From sequence record MN022785.1: a stretch of 64,000 nucleotides of DNA. The stretch is one strand, 5' to 3'. Made by a program: the position numbers and the translations under genes. Under the pieces are notes generated by a model. It searched no databases. It was given only the letters and a program-made list of their open reading frames with translations, and was not told the origin of the DNA. This stretch comes from Escherichia phage VEc20. Within the stretch, counting starts at the first letter, position 1; each line of letters begins with the position of its first letter. Below, in pieces: positions 7,583 through 13,341 of the stretch.

Positions 7583-7597
7583 TCTTTGACGATTTAA

Positions 7598-7613
7598 GGG
7601 ACCTTCGGGTCCC
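7598..7613 (+). terminator. hairpin GGGACC-TTCG-GGTCCC followed by T-run, downstream of gene 23
   Basis: perfect 6-bp stem, UUCG loop, T-rich tail. Confidence 0.55.
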
Positions 7614-7630
7614 TTTAGTTGTTTTTATGG

Positions 7631-7638
7631 TATAAATA
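7631..7638 (+). promoter_or_regulatory. late promoter motif TATAAATA upstream of gene 24
   Basis: exact TATAAATA about 28 nt upstream of ATG 7666. Confidence 0.55.
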
Positions 7639-7665
7639 AATCATATAAACCAAAAGGAAAGCGCA

Positions 7666-8978: not shown

Positions 8979-9986
8979 TTAGCTCACCAACTCAATCCAA
9001 GCTGGACGAAGTACATCTTGTACCATTTTAACTAATTCCTTTTTAATCAAAGAAGGATTATCTGCTTGAGTTAGAGTAATACCTTCACGAGAAGTTTCTT
9101 CCAAAATATCTTGAACAGTTAGCCCCATCACCTTTCCAAAATCCTTTGGACCAATTTCGCCAATTTTAGAAATAACGTTATTTACGCGGTTTAGTGTAAC
9201 GTAACAAGCTAAAATTCCAACCAATTTGTTATCAGCTTCTGATAGTTCAACTTTAGCTTTAATAGGCTTATCAGACTTTTTCTTTTCACTAAATTTAGAG
9301 TTCTTGCATTTAATCGCTACACGAGCACCGTTTGGCAGCCATTTAGGGAAACAAGGCTTCAGAACATAACCTTCTGCAGTATTATCACCAATAACATTAG
9401 CATCAAATACACAATTATTTGCTTCGACAAGGTCTTCCGATGCCGTAACGTTATAAGCGGCTAAGACGGAATCAAGGTCGTTTGGAATCATGATAAGAGC
9501 ATCAAATGTTCCACGTCCAAGCATTGGTGCCATTTTAAAACCAAACGTATTACAGAAATCTTGCATTTCGTAATCACTCATGTAATAAGTATCACCGCTT
9601 TCCGTGTTTATGATGATATCGAATACATAGAAATCTTTTTCACCGTAGTCAACACCTTTCTGAATTCCACCACCAGCGAATTCACCAAAGACTTGATATG
9701 TCACCGGCATTGAAGTTGAAATACTGTCCATGACTTCTTGAACGCCTTTAATAGCTTTATCATACTTTTTGAGTACTATTTCATAGCCATAAAAATCTTC
9801 TGCTGGAAGAATAGGGCCAGTACGTTTAGCGCAAGTTACTTTATCACGCTCAATAATCAATGAGAAATTTGTACCATGAATCTTTTCACGAGCTACCCAC
9901 TCCCCACCAGTCAATCCCAAGCTATAAAGTTTTTCAATGAATTTAGAATTGTAATGATTTTCAAGACTGCTATATTTTTTAAACAT
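8979..9986 (-). CDS. rnlB: RNA ligase 2
   Basis: 335 aa; nucleotidyltransferase motif I KIHGTN; matches T4 Rnl2 from memory. Confidence 0.9.
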
Positions 9987-9995
9987 AATTAATCC

Positions 9996-10274
9996 TCAAA
10001 ATGTAATTTCTAACCAATCACCATCACGCTGATCACTATTGACTTTAAAGCTGAATCCTTCTTTTCTCAGCCAATCACCAATTTCTTCAGTAATCAATTT
10101 ATCACGAGCAATACAATAATAATTAAAATGTGTTTTACCTTGTTCAGCTGCTTTATTAGCAAGTTCCGAAAAATCTTTAATAAAACATTCTAGCTTAAAC
10201 TGTTTACTTTTGAATGCTTTTTCGCGTAATTGATTAGCAAAAGATTCATTTTCATAAAGATCATACTGTTCCAT
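9996..10274 (-). CDS. hypothetical small protein (24.2-like position)
   Basis: 92-aa ORF, same strand, tight packing. Confidence 0.5.
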   Translation of the reverse strand: MEQYDLYENESFANQLREKAFKSKQFKLECFIKDFSELANKAAEQGKTHFNYYCIARDKLITEEIGDWLRKEGFSFKVNSDQRDGDWLEITF

Positions 10275-10476
10275 TTTTCACCTTTTTATTGATATGTCTT
10301 TTTCTATAGACAACTTTTTCTCGAGTTTCAAATTTATTCTTAGCAGTCATAGCTCGAGCCCATAATACAGCCACTTCTTTTGCCTGTAAGTTTAATTCAC
10401 GAGCAATTTCAATGAATGACTTTCCAGACTCATGAAGAGTAAACACCACAACCTCAGTTCTCATAATCAATCTCAT
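10261..10476 (-). CDS. small putative helix-turn-helix DNA-binding protein (24.3-like position)
   Basis: 71 aa; segment SGKSFIEIARELNLQAKEVAVLW resembles a sigma-region-4/LuxR-type HTH. Confidence 0.45.
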   Translation of the reverse strand: MRLIMRTEVVVFTLHESGKSFIEIARELNLQAKEVAVLWARAMTAKNKFETREKVVYRKRHINKKVKNGTV

Positions 10477-10546
10477 GTTATCGAGTTGGTGCCATTATAT
10501 ACATCATTTTCTGATTGTGTTTTGTGTGCTTTCAAAATGAAGAAAG

Positions 10547-10559
10547 GGGCCGAAGCCCC
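10547..10559 (-). terminator. GC hairpin GGGGC-CGAA-GCCCC downstream of hoc
   Basis: seen in sequence. Confidence 0.4.
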
Positions 10560-10565
10560 TTATGA

Positions 10566-11984
10566 TTATGGATAGGTATAGATGATACCAGTTTCTAAAG
10601 CAGTTTTATGAATGATATATCCATTACGCGATTCTTGGACATCAACTTCTGGATAGTCTTTCATCATCTTCTGAAGAGTGTAACGATGCAGGTAGTATTT
10701 ACTATCTGGATCTTCAGTTTTCCAATCTTTACCTTCTTCAGTCATTTTTTGAATTTCATCCATAACCCACCAACCGCACCAGATGTAAGCTGAGCTACGG
10801 TGTGGAAGAGGATGAACATAAGGTAATTCACCTTCTGGTTCTGGAGCAACTTTATCAGTTACCTGAACTTGACCTTCTGCCGTAATAGTTTTGCTATCAT
10901 AATCAGCAGCAGTAACAGTTGCAGTAACTTCAATAGTTTGACTTCCAATAGATGAGGTATCAACAGTATATACGTTAGTTGACCCTTCCACAGGAGAAGA
11001 ATCTTTCTTCCATGAGTAAGTAATTTGTGCTGCTTCAGGTGCGCCATTAACATTAGCAGTAAATGTAGCCGAAGCATCTTGCTGAACATTAATAGAAGGA
11101 GGAGTCAATGTAACCTGTGGATTCATTGTCTTCTTATTAACTGTCAATGATACTTCATTGGAAGTAACTTCCTTTTCATTATAATTTTCTGCAGTTACTT
11201 GGGCTACGCATTTAATTCTTTTTACTCCACTTGTAGTTGGAGTATAGTTAAATGTAGAGTTAGTTTCTCCACCAACTTGTGAATCATCTACATACCACTG
11301 ATACGTAGCAGACGCTCCGTCAGGTTGAGAAGCTAATGCAGCAGTAAATTGAACCGGGGTTCCAATTACTCCAGCAGCAGGACTAGCAGGAGTTACTGCC
11401 AAGGTAGTTGTCTGTGTCTTTTTATTAACTGTCAATGATACTTCATTGGAAGTAACGCTCAGTGCATCATAATCTGTCGCAGTTACTTGAGCTACACACT
11501 TAATTTTTTTAACTCCGCTTGTAGTAGGAGTATAATTGAATGTAGCAGAAGTTGCTTCGCTCACAGGAGAACCGTCAACGTACCATTGATACGTAGCAGA
11601 TGCGCCCGATGGCTGTGAAGCTAAGGCAGCAGTAAATTCAACGGCTGTTCCGATTACTCCTTCTGGAGGACTATTAGGAGTTACAGCTAAGGTAGTTGTT
11701 TGTGTCTTATTTTGAACTGTGATAGTTGTACTAATTTCAGCTGTTTCAGCTTCAGAATCAGGAATAGTATTTGTTGCAACTACCTTAATAGTCTTTTGAC
11801 CAGCAGGTCCTTTTAATACATAATCAAAAGTTGCTGCTGATCCTTCTTGGGGAGCATTATCTACGCTCCAAGCATAGGTAATAGTTCCACCTCCAGTTTC
11901 ACCACTGGGTGTAGCAGTAAACTGCTTGGTTTCATCAATAACCCCTGTCGGTGTTTTAGGAGTTATATCAACTGTAAAAGTCAT
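10566..11984 (-). CDS. hoc: Hoc outer capsid decoration protein with four Ig-like domains plus C-terminal capsid-binding domain
   Basis: 472 aa; repeated Ig-like units with conserved W/Y/C pattern; two central units about 85% identical; synteny. Confidence 0.85.
   Translation of the reverse strand: MTFTVDITPKTPTGVIDETKQFTATPSGETGGGTITYAWSVDNAPQEGSAATFDYVLKGPAGQKTIKVVATNTIPDSEAETAEISTTITVQNKTQTTTLAVTPNSPPEGVIGTAVEFTAALASQPSGASATYQWYVDGSPVSEATSATFNYTPTTSGVKKIKCVAQVTATDYDALSVTSNEVSLTVNKKTQTTTLAVTPASPAAGVIGTPVQFTAALASQPDGASATYQWYVDDSQVGGETNSTFNYTPTTSGVKRIKCVAQVTAENYNEKEVTSNEVSLTVNKKTMNPQVTLTPPSINVQQDASATFTANVNGAPEAAQITYSWKKDSSPVEGSTNVYTVDTSSIGSQTIEVTATVTAADYDSKTITAEGQVQVTDKVAPEPEGELPYVHPLPHRSSAYIWCGWWVMDEIQKMTEEGKDWKTEDPDSKYYLHRYTLQKMMKDYPEVDVQESRNGYIIHKTALETGIIYTYP
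11120..11695 (-). repeat. tandem 288-bp duplication inside hoc (two adjacent Ig-domain coding units)
   Basis: near-identical 35-mer TTATTAACTGTCAATGATACTTCATTGGAAGTAAC at about 11134 and 11422; protein repeats QTTTLAVTP...VSLTVNKKT twice. Confidence 0.8.
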
Positions 11985-12723: not shown

Positions 12724-13341
12724 ATGTACCACTTTGTATATGAAACAACAAATCTAATAAATGGTAAAAAGTATATAGGAAAACACTCTACTGATGACTT
12801 GAATGATGGTTACCTTGGTTCCGGTAAGGCAATTCAGCAGGCTATAAAGAAATATGGTGAAAACAATTTCTCTAGAACAATACTAAAAGAGTTTAAAACT
12901 TCCGAAGAAGCGTACATGTATGAAGAAGAAATTATAACTCCTGAACTAATAAAAAGCAAAAATTATTATAATATGAAACCTGGTGGAATTGGTGGAATTG
13001 TTATGACTACAGAGGTTATAGCAAAGATGAAAGAATCTTCCGCTAAAAGATTTGAAAACTCACCAGGCACGGTATTAGGTAAAACTTGTTACACCAATGG
13101 AACTAAAAATATTTTTATTAAACCTGGAGAACTTGTTCCAGAAGGATTTGTAAAAGGGATGGTTCATCCTAATAGAAAGTCCAGAAAAGGATGTAAAGTC
13201 AAACCGACTACCACAGGAACTTTTTGGGTCAATAATGGCGCAATAAATAAATTAATACAACCAGACGGTATTATTCCCGACGGATTTATTAAAGGTCGTC
13301 TCATGAAAAGAGATTCTAAAGGCAAATTTAGTAAGGCATAA
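12724..13341 (+). CDS. segE: GIY-YIG homing endonuclease
   Basis: N-terminal HFVYETTN...KKYIGKH GIY-YIG motif; located between inh and uvsW as in T4. Confidence 0.75.
   Translation: MYHFVYETTNLINGKKYIGKHSTDDLNDGYLGSGKAIQQAIKKYGENNFSRTILKEFKTSEEAYMYEEEIITPELIKSKNYYNMKPGGIGGIVMTTEVIAKMKESSAKRFENSPGTVLGKTCYTNGTKNIFIKPGELVPEGFVKGMVHPNRKSRKGCKVKPTTTGTFWVNNGAINKLIQPDGIIPDGFIKGRLMKRDSKGKFSKA

Follow-up and report, generated by a model that had tools for sequence, protein, structure and literature searches.

Tandem domain-2 units in the hoc gene of Escherichia phage VEc20, an allele already annotated in phage RB30

Known Hoc proteins and the hoc locus of the window

Hoc of phage T4 (NP_049793, 376 aa; PDB 5vf3/8t1x and others) consists of three Ig-like domains and a capsid-binding domain and forms a 180-Å fibre (PMC10385173). 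The capsid-binding domain, residues 281–376, is used to define Hoc homologues, among which the number of Ig domains varies up to ten, the count in Hoc of Serratia phage Muldoon (PMC10385173). A longer T-even Hoc is on record for phage RB30 (AY101183.1, AAM52483.1, 472 aa), where the gene entry has a repeat_region feature of 578 nt and the annotation 'intragenic repeat led to appearance of additional immunoglobulin-like domain'. In a literature search no paper on the duplication of domain 2 in T-even hoc was found, this GenBank feature note being the only specific account among the sources searched.

The DNA analysed here, 64,000 nt of Escherichia phage VEc20 (MN022785.1), is referred to as the window. 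An earlier note on it had described a tandem duplication in hoc that gives a 472-aa protein with four Ig-like domains. The sole long open reading frame over the flagged interval is the uninterrupted 472-aa frame listed in Table 1, and its translation matched T4 Hoc (PDB 5vf3_Z, 376 aa) at E=1.5e-219 in a phmmer search against PDB sequences. Gene order in the window is as in T4, rnlB-24.2-24.3-hoc-inh-segE-uvsW, and the window ORFs of rnlB, 24.2, 24.3, inh, segE and uvsW had 82–99.6% amino acid identity to their T4 counterparts. The features that mark a Hoc protein were present: a place in the late structural region with 24.3 on one side and inh on the other, as in T4, an Ig-like string at the N-terminus (PKD / I-set-like; Pfam and AlphaFold2 model), and residues 377–472, which are almost identical to the capsid-binding domain of T4 Hoc. 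Because of this near identity the protein would be expected to bind the capsid as in T4-type phages, with one Hoc monomer at the centre of each gp23 hexamer and dispensable for growth. A GC-rich hairpin followed by a T-run, directly 3' of the hoc stop, is a probable intrinsic terminator, judging from its sequence; phage NBG2 has a 'terminator' feature in the corresponding place.

Table 1. Features of the hoc region, in window coordinates
Feature	Position	Strand	Basis
hoc CDS, 472 aa + stop, two-unit (A-B) allele	10566..11984	-	ORF, phmmer, T4 synteny
Ig-like domain 1, aa 1–92	11709..11984	-	aligns to T4 Hoc 1–92; beta-sandwich, pLDDT 86–94 (AlphaFold2)
Repeat unit A, aa 93–188, A-type domain 2, extra relative to T4	11421..11708	-	codon phase
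Repeat unit B, aa 189–284, B-type domain 2, counterpart of T4 domain 2	11133..11420	-	aligns to T4 Hoc 93–188
Ig-like domain 3, aa 285–380	10845..11132	-	aligns to T4 Hoc 189–284
C-terminal capsid-binding domain, aa 381–472, + stop	10566..10844	-	almost identical to T4 Hoc 285–376
35-nt stretch, 3' end of unit A, identical to unit B 3' end	11422..11456	-	hoc nt 529–563 = 817–851
35-nt stretch, second copy, 3' end of unit B	11134..11168	-	hoc nt 817–851
GC-rich hairpin + T-run directly 3' of hoc stop (AAGGGGCTTCGGCCCCTTTCTT), probable intrinsic terminator	10540..10561	-	sequence reading

The window gene is orthologous to T4 hoc and occupies the same genomic position. Domains 1 and 3 and the capsid-binding domain of the two proteins align end to end, and T4 domain 2 corresponds to unit B; T4 has a single domain-2 unit and three Ig-like domains, whereas the window has two units and four. 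RB30 Hoc resembles that of the window in the gene concerned, its length, the 288-nt units, their A-B order and their junctions, with 91% DNA and 92% protein identity, but RB30 is without segE (PMC2330249), which the window has. Escherichia phages UGKSEcP1 and UGKSEcP2 (568/570 aa; locus L022) share with the window the unit family, linkers, flanking domains and neighbourhood; they differ in having one more unit (A-B-C type order), hence five Ig-like domains, and segE is missing between inh and uvsW in L022, unlike in the window.

More distant are the Hoc proteins of T4-like phages of Klebsiella, for example that of phage Marfa (L006, 471 aa); they have a conserved C-terminal anchor, a variable Ig count and KKT-type linkers as in the window, with ~47–50% identity to the window protein. 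The doubled unit in this group is domain-3-like, its two copies being 57% identical in L005, and represents an independent event. Among the Klebsiella/Enterobacter loci L005, L006, L007 and L011, Hoc lengths of 282, 377 and 471–472 aa form a parallel series; the doubled unit belongs to the 472-aa forms, and the middle domain is missing from the 282-aa protein. The series reflects an independent Ig gain or loss at KKT linkers.

Several observations were made on the genes around hoc. The GIY-YIG homing endonuclease gene segE (12724–13341, plus strand; 99.5% amino acid identity to T4) lies between inh and uvsW, ~750 nt from hoc, and inh, segE and uvsW are 98–99.6% identical to T4, with ~79–82% for hoc and rnlB. 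It is missing in UGKSEcP2 (L022, three-unit hoc) and in L023, and RB30, the classic carrier of a two-unit hoc, served as a segE-less recipient in published work (PMC2330249). Through homing accompanied by co-conversion, SegE could carry alleles of the adjoining hoc gene from one phage to another. The T4 gene segD, between genes 23 and 24, is missing in the window, where ~60 nt at 7593–7654 replace ~790 nt (T4 106521–107311). Mosaic patches with 62–77% DNA identity to T4 were seen at 9300–9800 (rnlB, minus strand) and ~10300–10400, between flanks of 97–100%; patches as sharp as these point to dense recombination breakpoints around hoc, typical of T-even mosaicism. The homologue of 24.3 (10261–10476, minus strand) has 71 aa here and 56 aa as annotated in T4, and the tblastn match extends upstream of the annotated T4 start, so T4 24.3 may have been annotated with too short a start, or the window ORF may be too long.

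Tandem units and domain architecture of Hoc

The repeat was located using Tandem Repeats Finder, which gave a 288-nt period with 2.1 copies at 11127–11720 and 79% matches, and by an ungapped repeat search, which paired 11127–11414 with 11415–11702 at 79% identity. After alignment in codon phase (Table 1), units A and B had 78.8% DNA identity and shared 76 of 96 residues (79%) in protein. These three analyses bear out the two adjacent 288-bp units of the earlier note and its placement of the repeat at 11120–11695, although the boundaries were 7–13 nt off, and the DNA identity of about 85% given there proved too high. The peptide motifs that it quoted from the Ig-like units were found in the Hoc translation. 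When hoc was compared with itself, the check proposed for the repeat, a shift of the protein by 96 aa gave 104 self-matches and every other shift ≤58, a self-repeat far beyond chance.

In the phmmer alignment T4 Hoc 1–104 matched query 1–104, and T4 Hoc 93–376 matched query 189–472; since T4 Hoc aligns in these two pieces, exactly one 96-aa unit is extra in the window protein. T4 Hoc thus has no such set of four Ig units; it has 376 aa and three Ig-like domains, as the note had stated, and a single domain-2 unit. Units A and B were more alike than either was to domain 1 or 3. Their longest exact in-register homology is a run of 35 nt at the unit ends (Table 1); in RB30 and L001 this stretch differs at 2–4 synonymous sites.

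Pfam matches above cut-offs were obtained on Hoc for PKD, Ig_2, Ig_3 and I-set, those of Ig_3 and I-set to domain 3 being at residues 289–373. A structure was predicted with AlphaFold2 from a 42-sequence alignment (mean pLDDT 84.7). The model has four beta-sandwich domains across residues 1–378, mostly with pLDDT >90, in which the strands of domain 3 run from 290 to 376, and an alpha/beta C-terminal domain of lower confidence. Using Foldseek, the nearest PDB folds to the whole model were strings of four Ig domains in ectodomains (ICAM-5 D1–D4, Dscam1 and Sidekick), with low TM-scores, as inter-domain geometry dominates and generic multi-Ig strings are returned; Hoc RB49 was absent from the top 50 PDB matches to the whole model. 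These neighbours support four Ig-like domains in the model and add nothing specific. The Pfam matches, the predicted structure and the phmmer alignment to 5vf3_Z together support a 472-aa Hoc with four Ig-like domains (domain 1, A, B and domain 3) where the 376-aa T4 protein has three, in agreement with the earlier claim, and the sequence comparison supports the fourth as a tandem copy of domain 2.

Distribution, age and history of the array

A Megablast search with hoc against 50,697 phage records returned 656 matching records, the closest being hoc of phage vB_EcoM_G2133 (98.1% DNA identity). An even sample of 60 rows was drawn down the ranking of these 656 records, and 51 of the rows were full-length hoc. 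Approximately 22 of the 51 spanned ~1419 nt in one piece and ~28 gave two pieces over ~1131 nt, the pattern of a single-unit gene. The comparison of Hoc lengths across relatives, likewise proposed earlier as a check, returned distinct classes among the best 120 protein clusters: 376 aa in 79, 472 aa in 29 and 568–570 aa in 8, the last class having three units. With two in-frame tandem 288-nt units and 472 aa, the window gene belongs to the two-unit allele of RB30 type. This four-Ig allele is common, previously annotated, old and ordinary, and neither new nor specific to this phage; it was already on record, because the RB30 hoc annotation, in an entry that was among the sampled records, names both the repeat and the added Ig-like domain.

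Three database entries deserve a separate remark. MG010123.1 ('Staphylococcus phage SAJK-IND', 32 kb) and PV654520.1 ('Pseudomonas phage vB_PSGBLB0006') contain a Tequatrovirus hoc at 92% and 89% DNA identity, respectively, and are probably mislabelled or contaminated. In the phage T2 record AP018813.1 the match to hoc covers no more than 1117 nt, and its annotation is divided among several pieces of capsid protein; this suggests a frameshifted or split gene.

For the analysis of unit types, 166 units were cut from 121 Hoc proteins and clustered, the proteins being cluster representatives picked by likeness to the query and hence a biased, non-independent sample. A scan of IMG/VR gave 21 loci only, with four close ones and a truncated fragment (L013), so that the unit analysis rests on the protein clusters and a handful of DNA loci. 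Within this sample, units clustered by position and not by genome. The A type took in every first-of-three unit (8 of 8), 28 of the 30 first-of-two units and 15 single ones; the B type accounted for 23 second-of-two, 6 second-of-three and 50 single units, and C and D types occupied later array positions. The orders seen were A-B (22 clusters, window included), A-C, A-D, A-B-C, A-D-C and A-B-D. Where a multi-unit array had an A-type unit it stood first (36/36), and in none did it stand second or third. The single unit of T4 resembles B, except that its C-terminal patch (TATDYDALSV) is A-like. Unit A of the window has 100% amino acid identity to the lone domain 2 of the Hoc protein P0112 and 94.8% DNA identity to the sole unit of the 376-aa gene in L023, and unit B has 98.6% DNA identity to the single unit of L024 and 91% to the T4 unit.

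A further five-Ig Hoc, P0046 (567 aa), combines a T4-like domain 1 and a single A-like unit with two far more divergent middle units (KKENNSAVAVTP... and KKANSSTLKITP...) and, after these, a divergent domain 3. Its make-up shows that distant unit types, too, go into arrays.

Synonymous divergence was calculated by the Nei-Gojobori method. Between A and B, dS was 0.71 overall and ~1.0 in core framework codons, compared with 0.03–0.44 for orthologous hoc segments of the window and eight other phages. As the value for the two units lies above those for orthologues, their split should be at least as old as the sampled phage diversity; on this measure the A/B split is old and this genome is not where the duplication arose. 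Seen against T4, the polarity may be the reverse of a gain, the three-Ig form of T4 itself being a loss derivative. Identity between A and B was 74–83% in any genome combination, equal within and between genomes, so this comparison gave no signal that the two units evolve in concert or undergo gene conversion. The unit ends were an exception, with a dS of 0.27 over 18 codons, a small sample.

Several pairs of Hoc proteins differ by one unit on otherwise similar backgrounds. P0031 (two units) and P0041 (one) have 5 amino acid differences, the first unit being the missing one; P0019 (two) and P0113 (one) have 7, with the second missing; and P0006 (three) and P0026 (two) have 5, with the third missing. 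The window Hoc has 9 differences from the A-only P0092 and 9 from the B-only P0079. Such near-identical backgrounds one unit apart indicate, at the level of sequence, recurrent gain or loss of units by recombination among Tequatroviruses.

The reading that best explains the whole is that the window carries a two-unit (A-B) hoc allele whose units are old paralogues of domain 2, polymorphic by recombination, and we put its probability at roughly 85%. All domain junctions read ...ACAGTT(A/C)A(A/T)AA(A/T/G) followed directly by AAGACA..., encoding TV(Q/N)(N/K) before the boundary and KT after it. In a one-unit gene such as that of T4, the linkers between domains 1 and 2 and between domains 2 and 3 share ~15–16 of 19 nt, including an exact AAGACA. 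The original duplication would have come about by unequal recombination between these quasi-repeated inter-domain linkers, as a crossover there is expected to yield an in-frame duplication of 288 nt with the novel junction SLTVNK-KTQTTT, as observed. Units A and B would then be old paralogues of domain 2, and the number of units in Tequatroviruses would since have been polymorphic (one, two or three), with their order conserved. The earlier note had spoken of in-frame domain accretion by slipped or unequal recombination. Codon phase confirms that the addition is in frame, and unequal homologous recombination at the linkers fits the junctions better than slippage, which is unlikely for a 288-nt unit. 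When phages co-infect, homologous recombination between them may have kept the units in flux, together with out-of-register exchange at the conserved unit ends, for which the 35-nt identical run is a candidate substrate. T-even phages recombine heavily in mixed infection. An example is the SegE-driven exchange adjoining hoc (PMC2330249).

A different order of events was also considered, in which A and B were divergent single-copy alleles of domain 2 in different Tequatrovirus lineages, joined by one out-of-register linker crossover in a mixed infection (domain 1 and A from one parent, B, domain 3 and the C-terminal domain from the other), the product then spreading by recombination. A is indeed the sole domain 2 in the 376-aa P0112 and P0092 (0–1 amino acid differences), as B is in P0079 (1 difference); moreover, domain 1 of the window is closest to the A-only gene L023 (98.9% DNA identity), and its B unit and tail to the B-only gene L024 (98.6% and 95%). 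Yet the fixed order, with A always first and three-unit arrays of A-B-C or A-D-C, fits positional paralogues with losses at least as well, and single-unit genes on array-like backgrounds are equally well explained as deletion derivatives. We consider this joining of alleles improbable; it departs from duplication in place solely in whether the units diverged before or after they were joined, and the data are compatible with both.

A recent tandem duplication private to this phage lineage, by slippage or unequal crossing-over and followed by rapid divergence, would account for units that are adjacent, in frame, equal in length and less similar to domains 1 or 3 than to one another. Against it, the dS between A and B lies above that of all the orthologous hoc segments compared here, each unit is nearer to units of other phages (94.8% for A, 98.6% for B) than to its neighbour (78.8%), and the A-B arrangement is found in hundreds of records and in RB30. 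The synonymous divergence and the closer relatives in other genomes effectively refute this history, which we regard as very improbable. Although errors of assembly are classically associated with tandem repeats, a mis-assembled repeat or read-through fusion hiding a T4-like gene of 376 aa was rejected as having almost no probability, because the copies differ at 21% of positions and so reflect no mistaken collapse or expansion, the ORF is uninterrupted, and the 1419-nt gene occurs in many independently sequenced genomes and in the stand-alone RB30 gene record.

The additional Ig-like domain and its meaning

Amino acid differences between units A and B fell mostly in loops, outside the predicted strands (15/20; Fisher p=0.006). 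The framework dN between the units was 0.01, and as read from these comparisons the framework of the Hoc unit is under strong purifying selection. Loop-biased differences together with a purified framework suggest that both units are kept as folded Ig modules with different loops. For the variable loop patches dN/dS was ~1–1.1, but these patches were chosen after the fact from the differences themselves, and positive selection was discarded as an interpretation for that reason.

The T4 Hoc fibre binds bacterial surfaces (PMC10385173), and its Ig domains bind mucin glycans, fucosylated ones (PMC9271167). By analogy with this binding, the added module of the window Hoc should contribute one more weak binding surface with variable loops for glycans or bacterial surfaces, and would lengthen the fibre by ~4–4.5 nm beyond the 18 nm of T4, giving a longer and more multivalent adhesive fibre. 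One could go further and regard the domain-2 array as a recombination-driven, tunable adhesin cassette, in which A, B, C and D have different loop-encoded binding specificities and units are gained, lost or swapped via their conserved ends at an appreciable rate. The position-specific types, the concentration of differences in loops and the backgrounds one unit apart are compatible with such a cassette, which we hold to be a speculative and rather unlikely extension. If it were true, fibre length and valency would be tuned to mucosal or bacterial surfaces, and hoc would be a contingency locus on the phage capsid.

As a discovery the four-Ig allele matters little, in view of the explicit GenBank annotation and of its frequency, roughly two in five of the Tequatrovirus hoc genes sampled. 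What the present analysis adds is only a modest refinement, namely the order of unit types, an estimate of their age and indications of recurrent unit gain and loss. Annotators of hoc should expect genes of 1131, 1419 or ~1707 nt. The unit-type order and the evidence for gain and loss could guide comparative binding experiments, and natural Hoc fibres with three, four or five Ig domains are relevant to work on display, vaccines and mucus adherence.
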